Positions 9,714-27,300 of a DNA stretch of 64,000 nt are shown piece after piece; the stretch's first letter is position 1, and each line of letters starts with the position of its first letter. The position numbers were made by a program, and so were the translations under genes. The notes beneath the pieces were generated by a model. It was not told the origin of the DNA. It worked only from the letters and a program-made list of their open reading frames with translations, and made no database searches. Source of the stretch: an uncultured Gemmataceae bacterium (GTDB lineage: Bacteria; Planctomycetota; Planctomycetia; Gemmatales; Gemmataceae); the NCBI GenBank assembly GCA_963750165.1, contig CAVVPN010000011.1:864001-928000 (forward strand), read 5' to 3'.

Positions 9714-9730
9714 GCGTTTTTTTCCTATTT

Positions 9731-11269
9731 TGTCATGGAACAATAGAAATGTCCGCATTTTGGGAACAATAAAAATGTCCGCTGTCACAGGGTTGTCACT
9801 TTTGCTTTTTGAACGGCTGCCGCCAGGGGTGATCTTCGGCTGGACCGCGGCGCCGCTTCGGGGTATCTTCCCCCGCGCCGTCGGGAGGATAGGGCTCCGC
9901 AGGAGTGCGACCCGAGCGCCCGCCGGTCGGCTGCATGCCAGTCGGCTCGGCCCCCTCACCCGGGGCCGGGCTTTCTTCTTCCCCATTGGCATCGGCCGCC
10001 AAGGCGTTAAACTCCGGGGGTCTGGGGGCTCTGCCCCCAGGGCGGCACCCCGCTGGGACCTCCCGGTACTTCAGATAGCGGCCGCCGAAGCGGATCGCCA
10101 GCTCCCCATCCAGCCGCAGTTCGATCACCACTTTGCCGCCGCGCTGCCCCGGGTAGATCGGCTTGAGCAACTGATAGCAGCGGTTGCGGAAGCGGATCGT
10201 GTAGTCGTTGGCGACCACGCGCTCCTCCTGGAGCGACAGGATCGCCGCCAGGTCGTGCGCCGGCCCCAGCGGCCGGTGCGCGTCGCCGACGTGCCGCGCC
10301 GCCTGGGTGAAGCGGCGGTTGTGCGCGGGCAACAGCCGCTCCAGCACCGCATTGGCCTGCGCAGGTGGTCACCCCCGCCAGGCGCAGTTCCTTGACCCAC
10401 CGATCCTGGGCGGTGCCGAACGAGCGCTCGAGCCGCCCCTTGGCCTGCGGGCTGTGGGCGCGGATCAGGCCGATGCCCAGCTCGCGCAGCGCCCGGCCGA
10501 ACTGGGTCTCGGCGTCCGGCAAGGCCTTGCCCTTGTCCTGGGGCGCGAAGATGCTGTGCCGGTCGGTGTACAACTCCAACGGCCGGCCGAACCGGCGCAG
10601 CCAGCGGCCCAGCAGGTCCAGGTGCGTCTCGGTCGTGGCCGCCGGGTAGAAGCGCGCCAGCACGCGGCTGGTGGCGTCGTCGATCAAGCTGATCAAGACC
10701 ACCTCCTCGCCGCGCCCCTCGAGCCAGTCGTGGATCGAGGCGTCCATCTGGACCAGCTCGCCGAAGCAGGCGCGCCGAGGCCGGCGGCTGCGGTGTTGCT
10801 CGCGGCGGCGCTGGCGCTGCCACAGGCCGGCGGCCAGCAGCCAGCGGCGCAGCGTCTGCGGGCAGACCACCAGCCCCTCCTGGGCCAGCTTCTCGCTGGC
10901 GAAGGGGGGGCCGAAGTCGGCGTAGCGCTGGCGGTAGGCCCGCAGGACGGCGTGCCGGAGGGCGGCGTCGGCCTGGTGGTTGGAAGGCTGGCCGCGCAGC
11001 CCGTGGACCAGGGCGTCGTCGCCGTGCGCTTCGAGTTGCGCTGCAGGCGGCGGACCTGGCGGGTGCTGAGGTCGAGCACCCGAGCGGCCTCGGCCTGGGT
11101 GCGCTCGCCGCGCAGGACGCCGTGCATGACCTTGAGGACATCGCGTTCCTTCTGGCTCATGGCGATCCGGTCTGTGGGAAGCACGTCGATAGGCATGGCT
11201 CCTCCTTGGCCTGGGCAAGGAGGACATTTCTATCGCGTTAAGACCGGACATTTCTATTGTCGTTCAACA
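9731..11269 (-). mobile_element. IS1202-like (ISNCY/IS481-related) insertion sequence
   Basis: Terminal IRs TGT-N6-ACAATAGAAATGTCC at both ends, each with a second AAATGTCC copy inside; no target duplication seen. Confidence 0.85.
9796..11196 (-). CDS. DDE transposase with N-terminal HTH, frameshifted near 11040 and 10355
   Basis: AGGAGG RBS; GELVQMDASIHDW, IDDATSR, LYTDRHSIF, SPQAKGRLERSFGTAQDR. Confidence 0.85.
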
Positions 11270-11320
11270 GGTGAGTTGTACTGTCGCACGCTGTTCCGCG
11301 GAATTACGGTATATTTTGAA

Positions 11321-11479
11321 CTGCACTTTCCAAGAAAACCTAACAAGCGGCGGCAACCTGTTTGTGGTCAGTCACTTACAACCCATCAACGACTGTTGAT
11401 GCCTGGCCTCCCGTTTTTCAGAATCCCAGTGTTTTTCAGGGTTTTCGCCTTCCGTGTTAGCTTTTCTCGGAAAGTGCAG
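11321..11479. mobile_element. 159-bp MITE
   Basis: 25-bp terminal IRs (CTGCACTTTCC[A/G]AGAAAA[C/G]CTAACA, 23/25 identical) flanked by the 7-bp direct repeat TTTTGAA (11314-11320 and 11480-11486). Confidence 0.8.
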
Positions 11480-11549
11480 TTTTGAAGTATCCGGTACAGA
11501 ATCCGGTACGCCGGTACGGCACCCGATCGGTCTGTATTGAGACACTTAG

Positions 11550-13287
11550 CCCGGATTACGCACCGTGCGACATTACCGGCGCATAATATCTCTTGAATGA
11601 CAGGCCGTTCGTTTGTGTGGGTTGGCGCAGCTGTTGTCCTGGGCTTTTGCAGCTGCGCAACCCCTTTTTCCCGCCCCCGGCGCGCACCGCGCCCGCCGAC
11701 GGCCGCGCGGGCCGTCTACCAGGCCACCAACCCTCAGTTGGCCACCCCTTCACCGACTGGCACCCGCCCAGCCACCTGACTCACATAGCGCCGCCACTGC
11801 CGCCTGCACCCGCAGCCACACCCCCCGGTACGGCCAGGTCTCCGACACGTGCAACCACACCCGCCGCGCGCTCGTCACCACGACGGCACCGGCCTTCCAC
11901 AAGCGCTGCCGCAACGTCCCCACGGACGCCGTCGCCACCTCGGGCACCGCTGCCGCCGCCTCCCGGAAGAGCACCACCACCGCGTAAGCCAGGGCATGCA
12001 CCAGCAAGCGGAAGGCGTTGGCGCAGAAGCCGCAGGCGCTCAGCCGGTCGCAGCGCAGGCCGTTCTTCATCTCCCCGATCGGCTGCTCCGGCACTTGGCC
12101 CCGCGGCGTGTACAGCCCGTGGTAGACCTCCGCCGGCGGTTCGGAGCGGTTCGTGACCACGAAGCGCCGCTGACTGCCGTGCGGGTTCATCTCCACCTTG
12201 GCGATCACCCGCCGCGCGTGCGGCCAACTGCCCGCCTGGTAGTCACGCACCTCCTCGAAACGCTGCACGTGCGGCTCGCGCGCGCCATAAAACTGGTAGT
12301 ACAACTCCACATCCGCCAGCGCTGCCGCCGTGGCCCGCTCCAGCACCGCATTGCTGGCGTAACCGCTGACGTAGTCCAGGTGCTCGGCTTCGCAGAACTC
12401 CTAGACGGCGGGCACTCCCAGGCCGTTGTCGGCGCGCACCAGGATGCGGACCTCGGGCCAGGCGGCGCGCAGGGCGGCGACGATCGCCCCGAGGATGTCC
12501 ACGGCCCCCAGGCTGGCGTGGATGGCGCCGGGCCGTAGCCAGACGGCCAGGGGGAAGCCGCTGTGCCCCTCGTAGACGTGCAAGGGCAGGAACTGATGCT
12601 GCCGGTAGTAGCCGTGGTAGCCGCTGAGGGCCTGCGCACCAGGGGTGGGATCGTCGCTGGCATCGGCGTCGCGGATCACCTCGGCCGGCGCCTGGCCGCG
12701 CGTGCGGATGAAGAGGTCCACCAGGTAGCGGTTGAGGATCTTCAGGCGCTGGGTCTGGGCGGCACGGACCTCCTGGAGGACGGGCCGTTCTTCGGGGGGC
12801 AGTTCGGCATCGCGGCGGCTGAAGGCGTAAGCGAAGCGCGCCAGCGTGCTACCCGAGGCGAGGGGTTGCTCGGCGTCGGGACTGACGTCGGCGCGGATCT
12901 GGAAGAGGGGGTCGGCGCGGAGGTCGTCGTGGTCGTTGTGGTCGGGGTAGCCGGCGAGCAGGGCGTAGACCTCCTGGGTGAGCAGCGCCTCGACGGAGTG
13001 GCGGATGAACTTGGGGGAACGCGGGTCGGGCAGTTGGGGTGCGAGGTCAGCGATGACGCGCAGGGGGCGTTCCAGGGCGCGGACGGCGAGCAGGCCGGCA
13101 TCGGCGACGAGGCGGCCGCCCTGGAAATCGATAAGGAGTTGTTGCGAGCCAAGGTTCCACAGGGTAAGGTGGTCGGTAACTTCGGGAGCCATGATCTTGA
13201 GCCTCCACAGATGGTTAAGTGCCGGTCATCACAACACTTAACTACTGTGGCAGGCTCTTTTCACAAATCCTCGGTGCGTAATCCGGG
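11550..13287 (-). mobile_element. IS1380-family insertion sequence
   Basis: Perfect 16-bp IRs CCCGGATTACGCACCG; flanks TTAG and CTAG. Confidence 0.85.
11750..13192 (-). pseudogene. IS1380 transposase with an in-frame TAG at 12401-12403
   Basis: ORFs 12401-13192 and 11750-12346 share a frame; motifs FQGGRLVADAGLL, YHGYY, VRADNG, RFVVTN, EMKNGL. Confidence 0.85.
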
Positions 13288-14567
13288 CTAGGAAGTGCGT
13301 ACCGGGGCTCGGTCGGTGAGGATGAAAAGGAATGCCGTTTGGGATTGCCAGGTAAACGCCGGTGACTGATTCCTTGTCTGCAGCTCAGCCGCACTGGAGG
13401 CGTCTCTCGGTCTGCCGCCAGGGTGTTTGACACCGCCCTGGTGGACTCTTCGCATTTGCCGGGTGGTCGCCCTCAACTTTCTCTGCGACCGAATGGGGCT
13501 GTTGTCAAAGTCGGGTTAACAAAAGCTCCATTGACGACCACAAGACGGACAACGCAGATTGCAAAACTTCACAAGATTGCTTGCCCCGTGACGGCGGATA
13601 ACCGACCATCCACCCCTTCCTTGTCGCGTGGGTGCTTTTTTCAGGGAAAATGGCGAGGTTGGCACGGTGCCGCCCACAACGAGGAAGTATCCAAGGCGGT
13701 TGGGTGGCTTCCCAGCGGCGAGTTGGAGACGTTGAACGGGTGCGACCTCGACAACTGTCGGATCCATTCGAGGTTTCGCGGCAGACTTCCCCAGGGTGCG
13801 GCGCCCGGAAGTCTGTTCCCTGGTCCTTCTTCTCGTCGCCTGTGCCGCCTGGCTGCCGTGCGACATTTGGCTCTTCCATGAGCGTCATAGGCTGCACCGG
13901 ACACGCAAAACGGGGTTTTGCCCACCCACCCCCTTTCCCACGTCCTGTTGCACGAACAGTGCGATTCTTCGCCACACCTGGCACTCCTTCCCGGTCCGCC
14001 TCGCCGATCGCAGGGTTTTCTTGGTCCGTTTCACTCTGGGCGTCAGCGGGCAGACAGGAGAGCCTGAGCGGCAACCTCGGGCGCAAGTCCCGACCGTGAG
14101 CAAAGGTTGCTGCCAGTCCCGGGTGACGCACGTCGTCGGCGCGGTGACTTCCTGGCGCTCGTCAGCCCGACGCTCTGGGCGTAGCCCCCGAAAACGCATC
14201 GCTGGGGCGGACGACGCGCGCAACGGCCATTGGCTTGCCTGCGCTTGTCGATGTGACCGGAGAGCCCAGCGTGACGAGGCATATGCGCGGCGGTGGTCGG
14301 GACCGAAGCACGATGCAGAATTGGGTTTAGCCGCCAATCCCGGCGAGCGCAGCGGTTATGGCCGCACCGACTCCCACAGAGCCCACTTCGGATAACGCCC
14401 TACAGCGCCTGGCAGAACGACTCAGTTCACGTGCGGGCCACTCGACTCAATGCTCAATTGCAACCTCAGTTGGCCCGTCACGTGCAACCGCTAGTTCGGC
14501 CCATTTCACTTTCCAGACGCCTAAATCGAGCTGCGTCCCCTGGTATGTGGGTTTTAACAAAGAAATC

Positions 14568-16075
14568 GAGACTTTAGCATAGCCGGTGACCGAATCCGGC
14601 CCGACCAGGCGTAAAATGAATATAGGGGGGGCATTTGGGTGTGGAGGGCACAGCCATGTTCGGACCAGGCGAGTACGTCCCGGACGTCACCGAGGGCATT
14701 TCCTCGCCCGAAGACCTCCCCAAGCCGCGCCGCGAACGCCGCAGCCGTAACTACCGCGCACGCCGCTGCCCCCATTGTGGTGCCCGCGCCGGCCGCTACA
14801 GCATTGACGTCCGCACCTTGCACGACCTGGGCGACCCGCGCGTCGGCCGCCCCATCGACCTCAGCGTCACCTACTCCAAACATCACTGCCCCCACTGTGA
14901 CTGCTACTTCGCCGTCGAGCTCTCCGACCTGGCCTGGCCCAAGTGCCACTACACCCGCCGCGTCCAGGAGTTGGCCGTCCGCCTGGTGGCCGAGGATGGG
15001 CTGCCCTACCAGGCCGCCTCCTGGCATCTCTGGCGCGACCACCGCGTCTTCGTCCCCTACGCCACCATCCAGAACTGGGTCGAGGCGGCTGGGGAAAAAA
15101 AAGGTGGCCGGCCTGTCCAGCACCTATCTCGACGAGGCCCTGGCTGACTTCTCCGGTTACCTGGCCATCGACGAAGTCTACGATGGCCCGCACTGCATCC
15201 TCAGCGTGGTGGATAACCGCCGCTACCACCGGCTGGCCGTCCGCGTCCTCGAACACGACCCGACGCAGGACGACGTCCGCGTTTTCCTCACGGACTTCCA
15301 GGCGCAGTTGCAGCAACGCGGCCTGGCCGTGCGCGGCATCACCACGGACGGGTCGCCGCTTTATCCCAAGGTGCTCAAGGAGTTGTGGCCTGCTGTCCCG
15401 CACCAGCGTTGCCGCTTCCACATCCTCAAGGAGATCACCAAGGCGGTACTGCGGGCGCTGGCCAAGTTGCGCAAGCAGATCAAGGCCACGATCCCCAAGC
15501 AGCGGCGCGGCCGACCCCGCCAACAGGACCAAGCCCAGGCGCGGCGGAGCCAGCGGTTGCAGCAGCGCGTCGCGGACCTGTTCGAGCACCGTCACTTGTT
15601 CGTGCGACATCACCTCAGCGCGGCCCAGAAGCAACTGCTGAAGCGCCTGACGCGCGGCCAGCCGCACCTACGTGTCTTGCGTGACATCATGGACGAAGTA
15701 TACCGCTTGTTCGACCGCCGTTGCCGGCGAGTGACAGCGCTGTGGCGTCTGCTGAAATTGCGGCAACGGGTGCGGCGGTTCAAGCGCCTGGCGCGTGCCT
15801 TGCGGGAGTTGAATAGTCCCGGTTTGGCCAAGGCGCTGCTGTTTTTGGATGACCGTTTGTTGGGATCGACAAGCAACGCGGTAGAGCGGGCCAATCGGCG
15901 TTTCCGCAAGGCGCAGAAGAGCATCTACGGAGTGCGGACCAAGCAGCACTTGGACCAGCGCCTGGCCTTGGACATGAACCGCGAACTGCGCGCTGGCCAA
16001 CGCGCTCGGACTCTGAAAACCCTGCACCACGCTCGCTCCGATCCTGATTCGGGCCACTGTTGATGCTAAAGTGTC
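14568..16075 (+). mobile_element. ISL3/IS256-like insertion sequence
   Basis: 13-bp IRs GA[G/C]ACTTTAGCAT; 8-bp TSD AAGAAATC (14560-14567 and 16076-16083). Confidence 0.85.
14656..16063 (+). CDS. Transposase (Zn finger plus DDE), split at a G4A8 run (15091-15102)
   Basis: CPHC...HHCPHC in ORF1; LAIDEVY, ITTDGS, CRFH and SNAVERANR in the +1 frame. Confidence 0.8.
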
Positions 16076-16273
16076 AAGAAATCACCCCTTTTTCTTTCTG
16101 ATTGTTGGAGAAATGCGCGCCAGGGCCACGGCGCGTCGCAGATGGCCAACGCCTTTCCGAGTAACGAGTTGTGTCACCCACACCCAATTTCCTACCAGCG
16201 CAGGCGCTCTCATTCCGAGTCTCGGGCGGACCCCGCGCGGGACGCGAACTGCATACAGAAATGTCGCGCGCGT

Positions 16274-16328
16274 GTTAACCGGATTGGGGAAAAGTTCGGG
16301 CGCCAAAACCTGGAACAATCCGGTTAAC
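16274..16328. repeat. 13-bp perfect inverted repeat downstream of the RiPP genes
   Basis: GTTAACCGGATTG (16274-16286) and CAATCCGGTTAAC (16316-16328). Confidence 0.6.
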
Positions 16329-16469
16329 GGGGCGCGCGAGCGCGCGACTGCCTTCAGCAGACTTCCTCCTGCTCCCGAAACAGCGAGCCTCGCGACTCCT
16401 GCCTCGGCAAAGGCCGTGTCATCTCCCAGGCGGCGCCTTGGGGAGGTTCAACCTGAATCTCCACTTCCC

Positions 16470-16674
16470 TTAGCATTCCACCGAGACATGCACCGAAATA
16501 TTGGGGGCGCGTCGCCATGGACTGATGAATCCTGTTCGCCTCGGCGACGAAGTTCGCGAAGGCTTCGTTGCGGATGATCACGTTCCCCTCGTCGGTCATT
16601 TTGAACAACTCAGACATGTTCTCGCTGGGCAGCTTGAGTGCCAGCGAGCTGGAATGACCAGTAATCTGCGACAT
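16470..16674 (-). CDS. Putative RiPP precursor peptide (67 aa if one C of a C5 run is removed; otherwise 106 aa ending at 16354)
   Basis: AGGAG RBS and ATG at 16674, 85 nt after the radical SAM stop; MSQITGHSSSLALKLPSENMSELFKMTDEGNVIIRNEAFANFVAEANRIHQSMATRP, then NISVHVSVEC* in the adjacent frame. Confidence 0.55.
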
Positions 16675-16759
16675 GGAAAATCTCCTGATAGTGCTGTCGG
16701 GCGTGATGACACAGGTTTCATGCGGCCGGTTCCGCCCGATTCTCCCGGCCGAGCATGAT

Positions 16760-18877
16760 TCAGTCTGATGCCAAAGCATACTTATAGCAGTTCAGGGATG
16801 TCAGACCAGTGCCATTATCGCAATGTCCGATTGTCTGGAGCGCCTCCTGAAGGCGCTGAAGAACCCCGACACCGGGAGCGTAAGTGCCCAGCGGCACTGC
16901 CAGGGCGAGGTAACTGTCCTTATCTCGGAGCAATAAGCCACGCCCGCACATGGTTTCCAGCAGGAGTTCGACCCTTTCCACACCGGGATACTGTGCAGCA
17001 GCTGCACGCTGTAGATAGGGAAGCGTGCGTACCTGATCGCACTCCAGGTAAAGGAACCGTGCGAGCCTGGAGAGCGTCACCAACGGCGCGCCGGCAACCG
17101 GCCGAAAATCCCAAAGCAGCAGCCAGGGTCCGACTTCGAGAGAGAAGAAATCGGTCTGCGGATAGGAGCTCTGCCAGTCGGCGATCCGACGCGCCAGCGG
17201 GGCCGTGTAAGTTTGCGTGTCAACCCGATCCCTCCGGTCGTAGACAAAAAAGTAGGCGAGATTATGAACTGCCTCCTCGGAGAGGGGATAGACATACGAG
17301 TACGCAGGGTAGGGTCTCACGTTCTGGAAGCCGTGCTCCGCAGGTGTCTCAAAGTTGGGACTGAACCTGTCCAAACGAATCGATGAGGCGCCGTCAGGTG
17401 GGGGCAAATGGGAGAGCAGCGGTATCAGCGCTTCCATCCGGACGTATTCGGCAGGAGGCTCTCCCGGAAACCCCCAGATGATATTCCAGGATGGCACGAT
17501 ACCCAGTTCTTTACACCACTTGAGTAGTTGGATGTTCTGGATCGCACTTACCCCCTTACGCATCAGTCTCAACACGGCATCGCTCAGGCTCTCGATCCCT
17601 GGTTGGATTTGAGTCACTCCGGCCTTGCGGAGCAGGCGTAGCTGCGCCTTGGTTAGATTCGCCTTCACCTCATAGAACAACTCAAGACCTGAGCCGCTCG
17701 GCCCATGGGACGGGGCGGCGTTTCGCGCAGCGAGCGCTGGGAGAAAGTCCGAAAAGTAATGCATGTCCAGGATATTATCGACCACGGATACCTGCAAACC
17801 GGGGTGGTGCCGGCTCAATGCTTCCAGTTCATGCAAAGCGCGAGCGGCCGACTTGCTCCGGTGCGTCATGGTCTGGCCGTTGAGACCACAAAACGTGCAG
17901 TGATGTTTCTGGCCCCACCAGCAGCCGCGCGAGGTTTCGAACAGCAGCCGGGGCCGAACCGGCAAGTCCATTTCTGCACATTGGAGTTGTGTGAAGAAGT
18001 CATCAAAGTCAGGCACGGGTAAGTCGTCCATCCGCGCTACTTGCGGTGCGCTGTGTACCGGCCCTTCGGCTCCGATGTCCTGGCGAGTCAGCACCCCCGG
18101 GAGGCCAGCTCCGTCATGACCCTCCAGCGCCCGCATGGCTAGCTGAGTGATGATCATTTCGCCAGGGCCCGAGACGACCGCATCGACGAACGGGAATTGT
18201 CGGAGCAACTCGCGTCCCATCATGCCCTCGCAGTTGGCGCCGCCGAAGACCAGGAGAGTCTCGGGGAGCCGCTCACGAAGCTGGCGCGCCAAGGCCAGCG
18301 ATGCAAGGTTCTGCTGGAATACTGTTGTGAAGCCGACCATCCGTGGCTGTCGCGCGCTGATTTTCTCCACGCAGGCTTGGAGGAACGACGCGACGCGCTG
18401 GCGAACGCTGAGTAATTCGTCCTGGAACTCCTCGGAAACCTTCCTTCGGTTCTCCGCCGTTTTGTGGTGGGCTGGGTGCCCCCCCCGCAGGACTTCTCGG
18501 AGGTACTCCCACGCTGCTGAATCCGTCTGCTGGAAAACCGCAGCCGAAAAGATCCACTCCCCTGCTAGGTCGTGATTGGCCGGGGCGCCGGCTGCGATCT
18601 TGGAGTAGACGGTCGGATTTACTTGCTGAGCGAAGTCGATCCCGAAGTAAAGGATTTCTGAAGCGATCCTGTCGAACGCCAGCTTGGCTTTCAGCAGGCT
18701 AAGTCCTAGCGAAGGTGTCAGCAACGGGGCGAAGGGCATGGAGACGAACAAAATCTCAGCGCGCGTGGGTTTTTCGCGTACCGGCCACGGCAAGGGGTTT
18801 GTTGTGTCCGCGTTCGATAGTCCAGGATGAAGTTGAACGGATGACGTTCCTCGCTCAGCCAAAACGGGTAGTTCCAT
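16760..18877 (-). CDS. RiPP-maturation B12-dependent radical SAM C-methyltransferase (TIGR03975/PoyC-like)
   Basis: VSMPF...PSLGLSLLKA, GEWIF, VFGGANCEG (B12 domain); ETSRGCWWGQKHHCTFCG (CX7CX2C); FYEVKANL, IQPGIES, RLDRFSP. Confidence 0.92.
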   Translation of the reverse strand: MELPVLAERGTSSVQLHPGLSNADTTNPLPWPVREKPTRAEILFVSMPFAPLLTPSLGLSLLKAKLAFDRIASEILYFGIDFAQQVNPTVYSKIAAGAPANHDLAGEWIFSAAVFQQTDSAAWEYLREVLRGGHPAHHKTAENRRKVSEEFQDELLSVRQRVASFLQACVEKISARQPRMVGFTTVFQQNLASLALARQLRERLPETLLVFGGANCEGMMGRELLRQFPFVDAVVSGPGEMIITQLAMRALEGHDGAGLPGVLTRQDIGAEGPVHSAPQVARMDDLPVPDFDDFFTQLQCAEMDLPVRPRLLFETSRGCWWGQKHHCTFCGLNGQTMTHRSKSAARALHELEALSRHHPGLQVSVVDNILDMHYFSDFLPALAARNAAPSHGPSGSGLELFYEVKANLTKAQLRLLRKAGVTQIQPGIESLSDAVLRLMRKGVSAIQNIQLLKWCKELGIVPSWNIIWGFPGEPPAEYVRMEALIPLLSHLPPPDGASSIRLDRFSPNFETPAEHGFQNVRPYPAYSYVYPLSEEAVHNLAYFFVYDRRDRVDTQTYTAPLARRIADWQSSYPQTDFFSLEVGPWLLLWDFRPVAGAPLVTLSRLARFLYLECDQVRTLPYLQRAAAAQYPGVERVELLLETMCGRGLLLRDKDSYLALAVPLGTYAPGVGVLQRLQEALQTIGHCDNGTGLTSLNCYKYALASD

Positions 18878-19435: not shown

Positions 19436-22048
19436 TCAAGCAGGGGCATCCCCATCTGTAGCAATATTGTGACTGTCCTGTACGAACAGGTTCTCACCCA
19501 CGTGCTCTCCGAGCTTGCGGTAGCTCTCCCACTGCGGCTCGTCGAACAACTGGTCGAGCGTGGTCTCGTTCGGGAAATCCAGGTGAAGGGCGGCGTAGTT
19601 TAGCACGTCAGCCGGTTCGTCCCCCGTGACCGTCGCCTTCAGGTAGAGCAGCCAGGTGTGCCGGCGGTTGACCCACGGATCCCCCGTCGGCTCGCGCGGC
19701 CCGGGGGGATAGCGGACGAGGAAGAGGGCGGCGTGCTTGCGGGAGAGTTGGTCCGCGGCGGTCAACAGGTCGCTGCGGGTGCCAAGGTACGGCGCCACCG
19801 AACCCGGTACGCCCTGCTTATGCAAGGCCACGGGGTCCGGGTCCACTTCCTGGATCTCCGCCTCGAGGTCCACCCGCGCCAGGCGGACGAGGTCGCCGAT
19901 GTCCGTCCCCTGGCGGGCCTGATCCTGCCCGGCGTCACAGATGATGACGAAGGGCACGCGCCGGCGGAGCAACTCGTACGCCCCCGAGTTCTCGAAGTTG
20001 CCGCCGTCCGACAGGTACCAGTAGCGGTACCAGGGGCCGCCGAACCGGCCGACCAGCTCGCTCAGCAGGAGCGACTGGGCACGGAACCAGTGCGACAGGC
20101 CGACGGTCACCGCCTGCCACAGGCCGCCCTTGACCGGCACGTCCCGGCGCTCCTCCACGTTCAAACCGGAGTTCCACCAGTACCCCAGGCGCACGTTGGC
20201 GAGGGTGAAGAGCAGGGCCTTGCCGAGCCCGGTGTTGCGGCCCATGCCGGGACTGACGGCGGCCCCGGAGATGGCGACCCATTCGCGCAGGTCGAGCGAC
20301 TCCACCGGGACGGGATCGCCCGCGCGGTCCAGGAACGGGTGCGGGCCGCCGTCGGCCGCCAGCGGAACCAGGGTGTCCCCCTGCGGCGCGTCGCCGGCCC
20401 ATAAGGCGTGCCACCGCTGCGCGACGTTGACCCCCGCGGGCCCCACGGCCAGGTTCTCGGCCTGGCGGTCGCGCAGACCGCGTTGCGAGGCCACGTCGAT
20501 GGTCTCGTTCACGGCGCAGTTGATCAGGTGGAGCGGGCCGCCGGCCGCGTGCGGCGCGTACTGGTCGAAGGCCACGTCGTCGCCCGGCACCACGGCGGTG
20601 ACGTTCCGCCCCTCGAGGTGCAGCCGGCGCTGCGGGTTGACGGCCCCCAGGAAGGCCCGCGCCAGCCGGCTGGCGTAGATCTCCCGCGGGCCGGAGCGGT
20701 TGATGAACGGCACGCATGCCCGTGTCCCCAGGAGCAGGCTGACGGCAACGGCGACGGCGGTGACCGCCATCCCCGGGGCGTAGGCCGCCCCGGCCCGGTA
20801 GGCGGCGTGACTGGCGAAGGACAGCACCACCAGGATCGGTAGCGCCCCGAGGACCAGGACCGCCACGGCCAGCACATACGGCCACTGCTTCTCCAGGAGG
20901 CTCGACCCGCGCTCCGCCCGCGTGAGGAACCAGCCTGACACCATCCGCAACAGGGACACCAGCCCCAGGAGGAACCCGCTCATTGAGGCGAACCAGACGG
21001 TGACGTTGCCGGCGTGAAAGCCCCCGCCTGCAAGCATGAACTGGGCCAGCCACCGGCCGAACCAGTCCACCACGCCAAGCACCGCGAATAGCAGCCCGGC
21101 GGACAGCCAGAACGCCAGCCGGGCCGTCAGGTGGTTGCGGGCGCGCAGCAGGCGGTAGCGGTTGCGCGGGTCCACGGCAGGCCCCTCGCTCCGCCGCACC
21201 GCCGCCCACGCCCCCAGGGCCCAGCACACCGTCGCGGCGAGGACGATGACGCTCAGCGGGCTGGAGGTGGCGATCAACACGCTGACGCTCACGAGCGCGG
21301 CCGCCACCAGGGCCGGGGCGATGAAGCTTTCGAGCCGGTCCTGGGAAACCAGCCAATACGCGGCCATCAGCGGCAGCACCGCCAGCCAGAGGATGATCTC
21401 GGCGAGGCCCGCCCATGGCCCCGGCCACTGGGCCGTCAGGTTGCCGGCGAGCGGCGTCAGTGTGGCGAGCAGGCCCGCGAAGGTCGATTTTACCGCCCCG
21501 TACGGGCTACTGTAGTTGACCGCGTTCAGCACGCCGAAGACAGCGAAGATGAACACGGCCAGGACGAACTGGACCGAGAGCAGGTTGCGCCAGAACCCGG
21601 CGACGTTGGTGAGCACTTCCCCCAGGCCGGTCGGGGACAGGTAGTTCGAGTTCTGCCGCAGCCAGAGCATCGGGGCCGAGTTGCCGTCGCGCAAGTCGCG
21701 GGCCACGCGCGCCTGGGCCGCCCCAGGGGCCTCGTCCGGGACGGCGCCGGTGAGCCCCCCGGGCTTGCCGCAGAGGTCGAAAAAGCGGCCGAGGAAGGCG
21801 CCGATGTAGCCGCCGCCGGACACGGTCGAGAGGAAGTCCACGTGCCGTAGCCAGCCCCGCCGGGCCAGGGACTGCAGGACGCCGAGACAGAACGCGGCGC
21901 TGCGGATGCCACCGCCCGAGAGCGCCAGGCCCAGCGTGTCGCCGGGAAGGCCACCTGGCTGGGTCTCGGGGGCCCCGGCCGGGCCCGGCCCCGCGGGGGG
22001 CTTCAGCGTCAGGAGCCACGGCTGGGGGCGCGGCGGTGTCATGCTCAT
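19436..22048 (-). CDS. Patatin/cPLA2-like phospholipase with a multi-pass membrane region
   Basis: GLALSGGGIRSA, STVSGGGYIG (nucleophile Ser) and YLSDGGNFEN (catalytic Asp); many hydrophobic helices in between. Confidence 0.85.
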   Translation of the reverse strand: MSMTPPRPQPWLLTLKPPAGPGPAGAPETQPGGLPGDTLGLALSGGGIRSAAFCLGVLQSLARRGWLRHVDFLSTVSGGGYIGAFLGRFFDLCGKPGGLTGAVPDEAPGAAQARVARDLRDGNSAPMLWLRQNSNYLSPTGLGEVLTNVAGFWRNLLSVQFVLAVFIFAVFGVLNAVNYSSPYGAVKSTFAGLLATLTPLAGNLTAQWPGPWAGLAEIILWLAVLPLMAAYWLVSQDRLESFIAPALVAAALVSVSVLIATSSPLSVIVLAATVCWALGAWAAVRRSEGPAVDPRNRYRLLRARNHLTARLAFWLSAGLLFAVLGVVDWFGRWLAQFMLAGGGFHAGNVTVWFASMSGFLLGLVSLLRMVSGWFLTRAERGSSLLEKQWPYVLAVAVLVLGALPILVVLSFASHAAYRAGAAYAPGMAVTAVAVAVSLLLGTRACVPFINRSGPREIYASRLARAFLGAVNPQRRLHLEGRNVTAVVPGDDVAFDQYAPHAAGGPLHLINCAVNETIDVASQRGLRDRQAENLAVGPAGVNVAQRWHALWAGDAPQGDTLVPLAADGGPHPFLDRAGDPVPVESLDLREWVAISGAAVSPGMGRNTGLGKALLFTLANVRLGYWWNSGLNVEERRDVPVKGGLWQAVTVGLSHWFRAQSLLLSELVGRFGGPWYRYWYLSDGGNFENSGAYELLRRRVPFVIICDAGQDQARQGTDIGDLVRLARVDLEAEIQEVDPDPVALHKQGVPGSVAPYLGTRSDLLTAADQLSRKHAALFLVRYPPGPREPTGDPWVNRRHTWLLYLKATVTGDEPADVLNYAALHLDFPNETTLDQLFDEPQWESYRKLGEHVGENLFVQDSHNIATDGDAPA

Positions 22049-22078
22049 AGGTCGTTCGTCCTCGGGTTCGCGGCGGAT

Positions 22079-24307
22079 TCAGAGACCTGCCCGGCGGCGG
22101 CGGCCGGCGATCAACTCGGCCTCGGCCGCCTCCATGGCCGCGGGGTAGAGCCGGCGGGCCTCGAACACGGCGCTCGACGGCAGCACCGGGTCGAGCTTCA
22201 GCGCCTCGGCGGCCCCGGGCGGCAGTTGGCCGGGGGGGATGGGGTGGTCCTCGGTGAGCACGTCGGCCGCCTTCTCGGCGACCATATACACGTTGGCGAC
22301 GATGAAGAAGCCAGGGATGCGCGGGAAGACGGAGGCGTCCACGACGCGGAGGCCCTGGACCCCGCGCACCCGGAAGCGGCTGTCGAGCACGGTCAAGGGG
22401 TCGTCCCCGGAGCCGATGCGGCACGTCCCGCAGGCGTGGTGCCCCCAGGCGATGTGCTTGATCCAACGGCGGACGTTGCCCTTGAACACGTCGATGCCCG
22501 GCAATCGGTAGTCCTGGATCGTGCCGTCGCCCTTGCCGATGTCCATGATGGAGCGCACGAACGCCACCCCCTGGTGCAGCGCCTCCAGGTCCGGGTCCCG
22601 GCTCGCGGGGAATTTGCCATCGGTCAGTTCCAGGCTCGGGTCGGGGGCCTGCGGGAACGAGCGGAAATTGATCTCCGGCCGCCGGAAGGGGTGGGCGCTC
22701 TGCAGGCGCACGTAGCCTTCGTTGTGCCGCGTCCGGGCCTTGAGGATCAGCCAGGTCAGCGTGCGCCGGTAGTACGGTTTGTCCCCGGGGTACGTCGGGT
22801 TGAGGGCTTCCGGCCGGGAGTAGCCCACAGAGTAGCCCGGGAAGTTGGCTGCCAGCGCCAGGGTGAACAGATCCGGGGCGGCGTCCTCCTGGCCGGAGCG
22901 GATGAAGATGCCGACCAGCCCGCCGTTGGTGGCGTAGACGCCGCGGCGGTACGCGGACTGGCCGGCGCGGGCGACCCATTGCCGCAGTTCGGGGTCGCCG
23001 GCGGACGACAGGATGAGGCCGTCCAGACTCCGGAAGCGGTCCGTCACCGTGGCGACGACCGGCACCTCGTAGCGGTCCTGCAGGTTCCGCCCCACACCAG
23101 GCAGGTCCACGTGCGGCTCGATGCCGTGGCCGCGCAGGTGTTCGGCCGGGCCGACGCCCGAGAGCAGGAGCAGTTGTGGGGTGTTGAAGGTCCCGCCACA
23201 CAGGATGACCTCGCGGCGGCAGTGGAGCGTGACCACCTGCTCGCGCCAGCCGTGGTCGTCGAGGACTGTAGCCGCCGGGTCGGCCTCGTAGACGTGCTCG
23301 CGCGGCAAGTAGCGGATGCCGGTCGCGCGGACCCGGGCCTCCATCCCGCCGACCCGGACCGGGGCCGAGTCCTCGGCGAACACGATCTCGGTGACGCACG
23401 CCCCGGTGAGCAGGTGCAGTCGTTCCGCGGCGGCCGAGCCCGAGTGTTTCAGACCGAGCAGCCGCTCCCGCGGGCTGGACCGCTCCCCCTCGGGCGTGAT
23501 CGCGCACGGGATGCGCGAGACGCCCACGCCCTTGCGCCGCATCGTCTCCCAGTGGTTCGGGTCCAGGTCGGGGAGCGTCCGGCCCGTGAACGCGGCCCGC
23601 GCCAGGTCGCCGAAGCGGTCCACGCCCGCCTTCAGCGAGGCCAGCGCCGCGGCGAGCACGACCTTCAGGAACTGGCGGTCCCGCTTCAACAGGCGCAGGT
23701 CGGACATGGTGGAGTCGAGCCAGCCGTGAAAGCCGTGCCGCCCGTCCTCCCAGCCCGTGCCGAAGCCGAGCCAGCCCTTGAGTCGCCCCCAAGGGGAGGG
23801 CCGGGCGTAGTGGCACCGCTCGACGCGCTGGAAGTAGGGGCGCATGCGCTCGCCGCGCCAGCTCTCGTCCTCGGTCGCCTCGGCAATCCCGTCCCAGTCC
23901 TCGGACAGGCCACTGATCGTGATCATGGCGTTGTGGATGGTGCAGCCGCCCACCCCCTGGGCCCGCGGGTAGAAGATGCCGCGCTCGTCACGGCGGGCGT
24001 CGTCGGGGCGGTGGACCTTGGGGTCCAGACTGCCGTCCGGGTCGTCGTCGAAGTGCTTGACGAAGTAGCGCAGGGAGTGGCGCGGATCCTCGGTGGACTC
24101 GATGTGGAGCAGTGGCACCACGGTGCTCTCCGCCTTCGCCCCGGCGGGCGTCGGCGGCTTTTCCGGCCCCATCTCCACCACCAGCACCGTGTACCCGCGC
24201 TCGGCCAGCCGCGCCGCCAGCGGGGCGCCGCCGGCCCCGGCTCCGACGACGATGAAGTCGAGCGGCGTCCTGTCGAGCGTTTTCCAGTCTTCCGGGATGG
24301 TAGTCAT
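22079..24307 (-). CDS. GMC-family FAD oxidoreductase
   Basis: DFIVVGAGAGG, YPRAQGVGGCTIHNAM, LLLLSGVGP, GVGRNLQDR, WGHHACGTCRIG, VVDASVFP. Confidence 0.92.
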   Translation of the reverse strand: MTTIPEDWKTLDRTPLDFIVVGAGAGGAPLAARLAERGYTVLVVEMGPEKPPTPAGAKAESTVVPLLHIESTEDPRHSLRYFVKHFDDDPDGSLDPKVHRPDDARRDERGIFYPRAQGVGGCTIHNAMITISGLSEDWDGIAEATEDESWRGERMRPYFQRVERCHYARPSPWGRLKGWLGFGTGWEDGRHGFHGWLDSTMSDLRLLKRDRQFLKVVLAAALASLKAGVDRFGDLARAAFTGRTLPDLDPNHWETMRRKGVGVSRIPCAITPEGERSSPRERLLGLKHSGSAAAERLHLLTGACVTEIVFAEDSAPVRVGGMEARVRATGIRYLPREHVYEADPAATVLDDHGWREQVVTLHCRREVILCGGTFNTPQLLLLSGVGPAEHLRGHGIEPHVDLPGVGRNLQDRYEVPVVATVTDRFRSLDGLILSSAGDPELRQWVARAGQSAYRRGVYATNGGLVGIFIRSGQEDAAPDLFTLALAANFPGYSVGYSRPEALNPTYPGDKPYYRRTLTWLILKARTRHNEGYVRLQSAHPFRRPEINFRSFPQAPDPSLELTDGKFPASRDPDLEALHQGVAFVRSIMDIGKGDGTIQDYRLPGIDVFKGNVRRWIKHIAWGHHACGTCRIGSGDDPLTVLDSRFRVRGVQGLRVVDASVFPRIPGFFIVANVYMVAEKAADVLTEDHPIPPGQLPPGAAEALKLDPVLPSSAVFEARRLYPAAMEAAEAELIAGRRRRAGL

Positions 24308-24343
24308 GGTGTCCGGGGTCCAGGGGTTCAGGGCCGCGCCGGG

Positions 24344-27300
24344 TCAGAACGTCTTGAGCAACTCGATCAGGGCCTTCTTGTCGTCGTCGGACATCTGGAG
24401 CAGGAACTCGAAGTCATGGCCGCGGTCCATGACGAAGTCGGGGCAGCGACTCGCGGCCATGAAGGCCGGGCCGACCTGCTCCTCGAACTCCTTCCGCCCG
24501 GGTTTCTTGCCCTCGGGGGCTCGCTGGTGCTCGATGACGAAATCGATCAGCGCCGACACGGCCGCCAGCTGCGCTTCCAGGGGGGCGTCCGGGTCGGTGT
24601 TGGCCAGCAGGTTCACCGGCACCCCCTCCGGGATCGGGCCGAAGCGGATGTCGCCGCCGCGGCCGGAGAAGAACTGCCCGAAGCCGAGGGCCACCAGCAC
24701 GGCCAGGAGCAGACAGGTGGCCCCGAAGAACTGCGTCAGCCGGTGCCCGAAGCCCCCCTTCGGCAGCCGGTGCAGTAGTAGCAATACTGTGACCGACCCG
24801 AAAAAGACCACGGGGACGAGTAGCGCCTGGACCCGCAGCAGAAAGCCCGATCCCTGCGTGCTCATGTCGAGCAGCATGAGGGTGGGCCAGAATTTGAAGA
24901 CGAAGATCATCGCGGCGACCCCCAGGAACAAGGCCGCGACGGTCAGCAGCCAGCGGATCGGCTCGAACAGGTATTCCAGCAGGGGCACCCGCTTTTCGAG
25001 CCGCTCGCGGAAGGAGAGGATCTGTCCGCTGAGCAGGAGCGTCACGCCCAGCAGCACGAAGGCAATCGACGGCAGCCACGGCACGAGGGCCACCCAGAAC
25101 GGCGACCAGCCGGTCAGGCCCGCCACCAGGACGGGGACCTGGTTGGCGTAGAACATCACCCAGGTTTCCTGCGCCGTCCGCCATACCAGGCCGCCGTCTT
25201 CCGCCAGCTGCTCGTTCACCTTCTTGACCACGTCGTCCTTTTCCTCGTCGGTCAGTTGGCTATACTTCTTCGCCTCGGACTTGCCCCCGGCTTTCGGCCA
25301 CAGGTGCTGGTGCAGGGCGTGGTAGTCGGACAGGTCGTCCTTCGTGACCCGCAGGCGCTTCGCGGGCCACAGCAGTTTCGCTGCGGCGTCGTCGAAGGCG
25401 TCCAGCCGGCCCTTGACCGAGGGGTCGTTGTTGAACCGGCCCAGGGCGTTATTGTGGAAGAACGGGGCCGTGGCCCAGATGCTGATGAGGGTGGGCACGC
25501 GGTAGTAGCCGCGGCCGCCGCCCGGAGCCTGGTAAGACTTGTCGGCCCCGGAGAGCGGGTCGCGATAGCCGACCCGGCCGACCGCGTCAAGTTCCTTGTA
25601 CGTCTGGGACGCGAAGTCCTCCCACATATGTCCGTGTAAGCCGTTGGTGGCCATCGCGCGTTGGGAGTTGGTCCGGGTGAGCGTCACTGGGATGCGCATA
25701 TCGGTGGACAGGTAGTTCTTCTTGCCCCAGTAGTCCGGGACGTTGACCGCCTTCTCGGCCCAGCGGGCGTAGGCCGGCGGCAGGACGCCGTCGCCGCGGG
25801 TGAGCCGGGTCAGGTCTTCCATCCGCAGGCGCAGCCCCCGTCGGGCCGCGGCCAGCTTCGTCGATTGTTCCGCCGTGAGGGTTTTCCAGTCCGAAGGGAG
25901 GCCGTCGGGCTGCGGCACTCCGTCGCCCTTGATCTGCTTCTCAATGTCCGGGTCATCCCCCGGCTGGATGCTTGAATGGCAGGCGATGCACCCTCGGGCA
26001 AAAGCCTTGCGGCCTGCCTTGTGGTCGTCGTGCATGGTGTCGCCGTCACCCTTCAGCTTGCCGATCTCCTTGACCCGTGCGGCGTTCTTCAGGCGCATGG
26101 GGTCGGTTGCTTTCATGAAAAACTGGAACATCGGCTCGACGCGGATCTTGGTCGCGTGCCAGAAGAGCGAGTTTTCCTCACAGACCTTGACTTTGAACGG
26201 CTCCTGCTTGCGGAAGCCCAGCAGCGGATTGTGCAGGCGGATCCATTGCTGATGGTAGGTGCCGATGTTCAGGTAAACCCGGGCCAGAGCCAGGTTGATG
26301 CCGACGCTGTCCGAGCCGTCGAGCAGCACGCGTGGCACGAATTGCGGGTTGGGGCTGTTGGGGTCGATGACTCGCAGATACGCCATGGTGTCCGGGCCGA
26401 TGGTCTCCTTCGGGTTGTGCTTGGCCCGCTCTCGGCGGGCCGGCAGGTTATAAAAGGCGTTGATGGTGTTGGCGTTGTTGATGTTGTCGGACGGGACCAG
26501 GGACGTGTCGATGGTTCCCGGCAACTGGACGTCGATCACCTGGGCAAGGAAGTTGTTCGCCTCCAGGGTGTTGGCGAAGATGTAACGGAAACGCAGGTAC
26601 TGGCCGCCGATGTTGTTCGACAGGTTCTCCCACTTCGGCGCCTCGGGATCGGCCGGCGGGTTGAGTGGGTGTGGGGCAATGTGGCAGAACCCACAGCTCA
26701 TGCCGACGCGGAAGGGGCGGATGGTGTCCGGCCGCGCGGCGTACTCGGGGTCGTTGTAGTAGCGAGCCGGGTCCTTCTCGCGGGCGCGCTTCCAGGCCGT
26801 CTCGGCGGCGCCCTTGAACTCCGGGTTCGGGAACAACCTCAGCCCGACGACGCCAGACGGATATCCGTAATACTCAGGGTTCGGCGCGTGGTTCACCCGC
26901 TCAACGTGGTTATCTGTCGGACGGTCGTAGCGGACGCCGTTGGCTTGCTCGGTCTCCTCCGCCGTCGGCGGCCGCATGCCCGGCTCGGAGAGTAGCCCCG
27001 CCTTGCCGAACCGCTTGCCGCGTTCCTGGCTGTCGATCAGCTTCAGCAGGTCGATCGAGCCGTAGCTGTTCCGGGAGAGCCAGTCCCAGAATGCCTCGTT
27101 GCCGCCGGTCCACAGCACCCAGGCGTTGCGGCCCTTGACCTCCTCCGCACTCAACTTCAATTTTTCGATGGGCGGGCCGCCCTTCGTGCAGTCCATGTCC
27201 TCGAAGTAATTCGCGGCGGCCGGCTTGTAATACCGCAGCGCCGCCTCCTCCAGCCTGCGCCGGCGTGACCGCCGCCCCGCCGAAATGTTTCTCCTTGGCC

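Follow-up and report, generated by a model that had tools for sequence, protein, structure and literature searches.

In the 64,000-nucleotide stretch of an uncultured Gemmataceae bacterium analysed here (NCBI GenBank assembly GCA_963750165.1, contig CAVVPN010000011.1, positions 864,001 to 928,000; hereafter the window, numbered from its first letter), a gene for a cobalamin (B12) radical S-adenosylmethionine (SAM) enzyme is followed by a small open reading frame (ORF) that encodes a peptide of 106 residues as sequenced. The two genes are probably a locus for peptide modification, in which the true product of the small gene has 67 residues and the enzyme beta-methylates Ile and Val in the core ISVHVSVEC of this peptide. 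What was observed directly is the family of the enzyme, the arrangement of the operon, one extra base, a family of precursors and the linkage of this family to TIGR03975 genes; the chemistry is proposed from the characterised enzymes PoyC, EreB and MpcB.

The two-gene locus and its reading frame

The enzyme gene, located on the minus strand at 16760-18877, codes for 705 residues and is the only TIGR03975 gene in the genome (9.6 Mb, 12 contigs). Its product scores 647 bits against TIGR03975 (cut-off 281.85), covering profile positions 1-606, and contains CWWGQKHHCTFC, which corresponds to CX7CX2C. A match to the B12-binding domain PF02310 had an E-value of 2.9e-6, yet its 27.6 bits are below the cut-off of 32.1. 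TokK and TsrM were the only matches of the enzyme in the PDB. The ATG of the precursor gene follows at 16674 (minus strand), after a gap of 85 nt (16675-16759), and is preceded by AGGAGA at a distance of 6 nt; skipping of one base converts the 106-residue ORF to a 67-residue one ending in NISVHVSVEC*. An earlier reading by a model, made from the sequence only, had described a CX7CX2C B12 radical SAM gene and a small ORF with no adjacent protease or transporter. The enzyme assignment was confirmed by the profile and the motif, the lack of the two accessory genes by a library scan of the flanking genes, and its coordinates and sequences (ORFs, 85-nt gap, ribosome-binding site, G5 run, 67-residue read-through) were all correct. 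The features of the locus are as follows.

16760..18877, minus strand: TIGR03975 B12 radical SAM gene, above cut-off over the whole profile
16681..16686, minus strand: Shine-Dalgarno sequence AGGAGA, 6 nt before the precursor ATG (sequence)
16513..16674, minus strand: precursor leader of about 54 residues, with the motif F-K/Q-x-x-x-x-G-N/E-V-I-I and then a predicted helix (homologue profile and alignment)
16495..16516, no strand assigned: stretch with one extra base, best fit at 16512-16513; G5 run of the plus strand at 16503-16507 (homologue alignment)
16470..16502, minus strand: core predicted in the shifted frame, NISVHVSVEC, with its TAA stop (read-through, homologue tails, tail null)
16354..16502, minus strand: unconserved tail of the 106-residue ORF as sequenced, most likely produced artefactually by the extra base (homologues, tail null)

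The 67-residue frame is favoured by comparison with the precursor family described below. The read-through reaches a family score of 37.0 bits, versus 30.1 bits as sequenced; 37.0 bits was reached by no more than 2 of 5000 random tails derived from the genome and 1 of 5000 derived from the island, and the tail of the 106-residue form scored at the null median. The alignment of the homologues with the 106-residue form ends at residue 54, while with the read-through it continues into the tail. The long tail, conservation of which in homologues would have spoken for the frame as sequenced, was seen in no homologue within the searched range of 29-132 residues. The GC content at third codon positions of the two tails was uninformative (0.61 vs 0.60).

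As to the position of the extra base, a single-base skip against P0019, a 69-residue homologue, scored 158 at 16512-16513, 149 in the C5 run (the G5 run of the plus strand), and 130 as sequenced, and (M/L)ARA precedes the core in all three close homologues. The family profile cannot separate the two skip sites (36.6 vs 37.0 bits); the core is identical whichever is chosen, the read-through ending in R-x(1-2)-NISVHVSVEC. The extra base is thus probably located 5-10 nt upstream of the C5 run, as judged from the alignment, and is not tied to a homopolymer. Of the one-nucleotide homopolymer shift suggested by the sequence-only reading, the single extra base and the 67-residue frame are upheld by the homologues and the tail null, whereas the C5 run gives way to 16512-16513 as the better-fitting site.

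A precursor family beside TIGR03975 genes

A set of 73 loci of related enzymes was compiled from the best 80 of 325 matches. In 6 of these loci, an ORF of 54-75 residues with the same leader motif adjoins the enzyme gene, namely in L001 (Eremiobacterota), L005 (Acidobacteriaceae), L006, L009 and L015 (Lysinibacillus), and L008 (Pseudalkalibacillus, with two paralogues); their tails are mostly alternating Val/Ile. Profile searches contributed 15 and then 5 further proteins, and a full-library search with the leader matched P0019 at an E-value of 2.2e-9. The family comprises 23 other proteins from Bacillota, Acidobacteriota and Eremiobacterota. With a profile of 14 homologues, the window ORF was the top match among the genome's 170,527 six-frame segments (E 0.0072); since this profile was built without the window sequence, the family link is not circular. 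Addition of P0019 to the profile brought the E-value to 5.1e-7.

All of the 21 short homologues (29-132 residues searched) have lengths of 53-75 residues. P0019, P0023 and P0025 have 69 residues each, share 45-48% identity with the read-through and have VTVSVSVKF or VEVSVKVKF at their C-terminus. The leader is conserved and the tail variable, not only between genomes; L008 has a pair of paralogues, and P0006 and P0021 are both from Rossellomorea, with an identical length of the longest contig. A conserved leader and a variable core beside a maturase gene are what is generally expected of precursors of peptides that are made by the ribosome and modified after translation (RiPPs), and the sequence pattern of the family, including the paralogues in one genome, fits a RiPP precursor.

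When the peptide profile alone was used as a query, three further genomes among 802 were retrieved, and in each of the three the match lies directly against a TIGR03975 gene that exceeds the cut-off. In total, all nine other loci with genomic context adjoin a TIGR03975-type gene, seven of which were scanned and exceeded the cut-off, while those of L009 and L015 were identified by tblastn. In a tree of 95 of the 98 enzyme loci (L104, L106 and L112, which the motif search missed, were omitted), the ten enzymes paired with a family peptide all belong to a single clade of 20 members (FastTree support 0.90). The enzymes nearest to that of the window among the 95 are those of L125, L126 and L001 (45-46% identity), and all three are paired with this leader.

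Searches of Pfam and NCBIfam with the window peptide gave no match at E<=0.1; as a control, the NHLP leader of the Nostoc locus L050 was recognised in the same library with 97.6 bits (TIGR03793). Fifteen members of the alignment had weak Pfam matches only (best E 0.01), a profile search of the PDB with the family returned nothing better than E>=0.2, and neither a word-indexed protein search with the leader alone nor a tblastn search of plasmids with P0019 yielded a match. No match to the family profile was found in the actinobacterial loci among the 73. The ESM Atlas gave no usable hit, a result which speaks neither for novelty nor for absence. Two candidates were rejected: a metagenome match to the leader in L094 (1 confirmed stretch of 553) is a chance match inside an unrelated ORF of 256 residues, and P0020, a repeat protein of 1810 residues, is a compositional match. 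In listings of open-access papers and main preprint texts on TIGR03975, clavusporin and related B12 radical SAM RiPPs, no description of this precursor family was found. By these sequence comparisons, the leader defines an unnamed family outside Pfam and NCBIfam. The suggestions of the sequence-only reading that the leader is neither NHLP nor Nif11, that homologues of it might be neighbours of TIGR03975 genes, with cores of VxVxV type at their ends, and that the precursor family is possibly new all agree with these results.

The loci of Bacillaceae (L006, L008, L122; also L009 and L015) comprise genes for the TIGR03975 enzyme, the precursor, an M16 peptidase, a helix-turn-helix (HTH) protein, an alpha-ketoglutarate (aKG)-HExxH hydroxylase and a major facilitator superfamily (MFS) transporter, and from this gene content they appear to show the full pathway. 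In L122, genes for an HTH-tetratricopeptide repeat regulator and a small secreted-looking peptide (11890-12060) are located upstream. The genome of the window codes for an M16 peptidase on another contig, which is 22% identical to that of L006.

Another layout is found in two proteins of Acidobacteriota, P0026 (222 residues; L125:7964-8632) and P0027 (157 residues; L126:7953-8426), where the leader motif is C-terminal, behind two copies (P0026) or one copy (P0027) of the Pro/Val-rich FAPPYVPVGPVVMGDNI. Both are encoded directly upstream of a TIGR03975 gene, and an O-methyltransferase gene follows that of the enzyme. Judged from their sequences, they are possibly multi-core precursors with a follower, and their layout suggests a module that can act either as a leader or as a follower. 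On a broader view, which we offer tentatively and consider somewhat doubtful as a whole, the leader may be a portable module, so far undescribed, for recognition by TIGR03975 enzymes, serving as leader in precursors of 53-75 residues and as follower behind Pro/Val cores in Acidobacteriota. Requiring neither NHLP nor DUF5825, it would direct iterative formation of tert-leucine on alternating Val-Ser strands, giving self-assembling surfactants across at least three phyla, and the complete clusters of Bacillaceae would also beta-hydroxylate, cleave and export their products.

Short ORFs with other characteristics occur upstream of some related enzymes. In Bradyrhizobium and Sphingomonas (L033, L034, L041, L044, L049, L058, L063, L065, L062), they have IHID-type tails or SVHVDF and a different leader, and some of these loci have a SPASM-like ORF downstream. 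In Nitrospirillum (L060:4870-5849, L057:5339-5898), 2-4 short ORFs ending in LP-x-x-W-F/Y precede a TIGR03975-type gene.

Proposed chemistry, genomic setting and alternative explanations

By analogy with the characterised methylases, the conserved leader would dock on the enzyme, a 5'-deoxyadenosyl radical would abstract a C-beta hydrogen, and methylcobalamin would provide the methyl group; the reaction would be iterative, converting Val to tert-leucine. With Val and Ile at alternate positions, the product would be a strand that is very greasy on one face and polar on the other (Ser, His, Glu). Such a tert-leucine strand is likely because the core I-S-V-H-V-S-V fits the pattern of the characterised methylases. 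With less certainty, a protease encoded elsewhere might release the leader by cleavage close to the Arg that precedes the core, and the product might act as an amphiphile or surfactant. Both processing and export of the window peptide would have to be supplied from elsewhere.

An AlphaFold model of P0019, of low confidence (mean predicted local distance difference test score, pLDDT, 54), shows a hairpin plus a helix and an unstructured tail (pLDDT <50). The predicted complex of the L008 enzyme with its peptide scored 0.46, compared with 0.00 for the best control, with contacts agreeing to at least 68% between runs and a partner pLDDT of at least 57. Among solved pairs, 51 of 78 reached the mark for complex scores, as did 2 of 108 mismatched ones, and passing scores of <=0.60 were found for only 5 of the 78 solved pairs, yet for all 4 passing mismatches of 180; the complex model gives weak support to binding of the leader by the maturase.

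The enzyme and precursor genes form a low-GC island (58.7% GC vs 64.8% and 69.1% in the flanks), bordered on one side by a multi-copy insertion sequence (IS) element and on the other by genes for a patatin-like protein and a glucose-methanol-choline (GMC) oxidoreductase. Epimerase and other tailoring genes are absent from the flanks, where the transposase, the patatin-like protein and the GMC oxidoreductase are encoded. Two further features lie downstream of the precursor gene.

16263..16348, minus strand: strong hairpin whose 13-bp inverted repeat is perfect, 16274-16286 / 16316-16328 (z -3.9, 0 of 200 shuffles)
14567..16075, plus strand: multi-copy IS element with an ISL3/IS256-like transposase at the island border (library scan, copies in the genome)

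The hairpin lacks a U-run and hence is not named a terminator; in a scan for promoters and terminators, counts were at chance level. Three multi-copy IS elements cluster at 9729-16075. Upstream of the island, at 19436-27196 (minus strand), there are genes for a patatin-like membrane protein, a GMC oxidoreductase and a di-heme cytochrome c peroxidase-like protein, which are apparently unrelated. TIGR03975 exceeded its cut-off in 15 of 401 genomes of the host's phylum, and the precursor leader was not found within 1.5 kb of the other TIGR03975 genes there. Since the family was found neither in that neighbourhood nor in 251 other genomes of the host's family, the island was probably acquired horizontally.

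The lack of a match in these 251 genomes is at the same time one of several observations that weigh against a functional methylation locus in this strain. Neither a protease nor a transporter gene adjoins the enzyme and precursor genes. Six of the nine linked loci had been found via the enzyme and several are kin, the other 10 of the 20 enzymes in the clade are without a detected family peptide, and the tails of some homologues (P0005, P0024) are not Val-rich. The IS-bordered low-GC island is a setting where real pseudogenes occur. The extra base could be real, in which case the precursor would have become a pseudogene recently, within an island gained by horizontal transfer, and the strain would make no peptide, the ancestral function being the one proposed above. 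The absence of accessory genes would fit this explanation, as would the sparseness of errors in the assembly: at about 1 per 5-10 kb, the prior chance of an error in the 204-nt gene is 2-4%, five of six essential genes tested (rpoB, ileS, valS, alaS, dnaE) are intact, and among 132 G/C five-runs in repeats a single one varied in length. We nevertheless consider a pseudogene unlikely. The same kind of lesion is present in the essential gene rpoC (G000:C12:312568-321531), where two one-base frameshifts, caused by one C too many in a GC-rich stretch that is no homopolymer and by one G too few, are accompanied by an exact 958-bp duplicate of the 3' part of the gene, and these are signs of assembly error. 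Repeats with three or more copies contain 21 odd-copy indel columns in 83,732 bases, some of which may be real mutations; only 2 of the 21 are in runs of five or more. Three of the 21, one-base indels in IS copies, are within the window (11036, 11658, 11791). Because the enzyme gene, ten times longer, is intact, and because L001, L005, L125 and L126 have equally minimal layouts, an error is favoured, and by our judgement, which is not a computation, the extra base is probably an assembly error. One observation weighs against an error: the strong hairpin starts shortly past the stop of the 106-residue ORF, but some 120 nt past that of the 67-residue frame. If it were real, this copy would be a pseudogene and the family would still stand.

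Other explanations concern the role of the small protein. It might be a partner or recognition subunit, MpcC-like or acting as a leader in trans, with a structural last strand and the true substrate encoded elsewhere. MpcB is inactive without its DUF5825 partner (bioRxiv 10.1101/2024.01.23.576971), and in the genome of the window (93% complete) no DUF5825 exceeds the cut-off, the best match to PF19142 (17.9 bits vs 25) being on another contig and containing a stop. Moreover, the last strand could be structural because in P0026 and P0027 the whole motif including the tail is located behind other candidate cores. However, leaders are conserved while tails vary, paralogues with different tails occur in one genome, the tail is unstructured in the P0019 model, and in the Bacillaceae clusters, where protease, hydroxylase and exporter are encoded, nothing else was seen as a precursor candidate, all of which makes a partner role improbable. 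A substrate peptide undergoing a reaction other than C-methylation of Val and Ile, such as cross-linking or modification of His or Cys, is more improbable still: the core of the window has a His and a terminal Cys, and that of L001 has a His too, but it is the alternating Val/Ile that is conserved in the family, not His and Cys. PbsB, a B12 radical SAM enzyme of another RiPP pathway, is reported to cross-link rather than methylate (PMC12257519), whereas the characterised CX7CX2C enzymes PoyC and MpcB, in the accounts cited below, beta-methylate.

The 106-residue ORF might also be native, or a programmed +1 shift at CCC-C might yield both forms. The hairpin starts directly after the stop of this ORF, at a distance of 6 nt, and about 120 nt past the stop of the 67-residue frame. 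CCC-C is a context prone to +1 shifts, and the P0001 cluster consists of two member sequences on one contig. Set against this, the long tail is found in no homologue and scores no better than random ones, and the homologues favour a lesion outside the C run, so that we give this explanation hardly any credence.

Comparison with known systems

The 67-residue precursor and its enzyme most resemble the clavusporin system (mpc) of Streptomyces clavuligerus, which consists of MpcA, MpcB and MpcC. In the clavusporin preprint, MpcB, a CX7CX2C enzyme, is described to beta-methylate iteratively the Pro, Val, Ile and Thr residues of KPSVGITITVPFR in a leader-dependent reaction that needs DUF5825, and the product is a surfactant; all of the 229 mpc clusters are actinobacterial, short precursors with alternating Val/Ile and no follower are also given, and clavusporin and polytheonamide are the only heavily C-methylated peptides named there (bioRxiv 10.1101/2024.01.23.576971). 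The window shares with this system the CX7CX2C B12 radical SAM enzyme, as compared at the level of the motif, and a short precursor with an Arg before an alternating Val/Ile core. Unlike the mpc locus, it has no DUF5825 partner and no adjacent S9 peptidase or MFS gene, both of which lie upstream in mpc, and its leader of 54 residues belongs to another family than that of clavusporin, which has about 18 residues. By analogy, the product is likely a beta-methylated amphiphilic Val/Ile peptide like clavusporin, made without an NHLP leader or a DUF5825 partner.

Proteusins, which carry an NHLP leader, were the model of the sequence-only reading, which had pointed to PoyC and polytheonamide. PoyC, which shares the CX7CX2C motif, methylates the beta-carbons of Ile and Val through hydrogen abstraction by the 5'-deoxyadenosyl radical and transfer from methylcobalamin (PMC11285071), and EreB of the pythonamide pathway adds up to seven methyl groups (PMC9259500). 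The PoyC model is apt with respect to the motif and the presumed reaction; clavusporin is the closer characterised model. PoyB/PoyC and EreB resemble the window enzyme as B12 radical SAM enzymes that beta-methylate Val and Ile, which for the window is the presumed chemistry. The window differs from the proteusins in the absence of an NHLP leader, in a core of about 10 residues instead of about 49, and in the absence of an adjacent epimerase or tailoring gene. The apparently uncharacterised Nostoc locus L050 (5562-5843) encodes a core of nearly the same type, RVKISVSVEF, beside a TIGR03975-type gene; unlike the window, it combines this core with the NHLP leader mentioned above and a dedicated transporter set, and it does not match the new leader profile. 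The pair of sequences suggests leader swapping on a shared core.

The bottromycin precursor has a follower-peptide layout, and P0026 and P0027 recall it in that the recognition motif comes after Pro/Val-rich units. Their loci differ from it in that no YcaO was present in the ORF lists, where only the gene after the enzyme was scanned, and the window peptide has the motif as a leader. The B12 radical SAM enzymes of bottromycin biosynthesis methylate Pro, Val and Phe (PMC11285071).

The number of known peptides with heavy C-methylation is small, and reconstitution of the B12 methylases that form tert-leucine is difficult. If the proposal is true, no platform for tert-leucine chemistry would be simpler than one enzyme and one short peptide with its new leader, and such a system would tell whether DUF5825 partners are needed in general. 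The window copy is mainly a pointer, the enzyme family and the likely chemistry being already known, and the family is best pursued in cultured Bacillaceae: the five-gene clusters in species of Lysinibacillus, Pseudalkalibacillus and Bacillus that are in culture open the product to direct testing, and could carry clavusporin-like surfactants beyond the actinomycetes. As compared with the systems discussed here, the locus likely represents a new precursor family presumably subject to a known chemistry. Having neither the NHLP leader of the proteusins nor the DUF5825 protein, S9 peptidase and MFS transporter of clavusporin, it belongs to neither group, yet it appears to work like the methylases of both.

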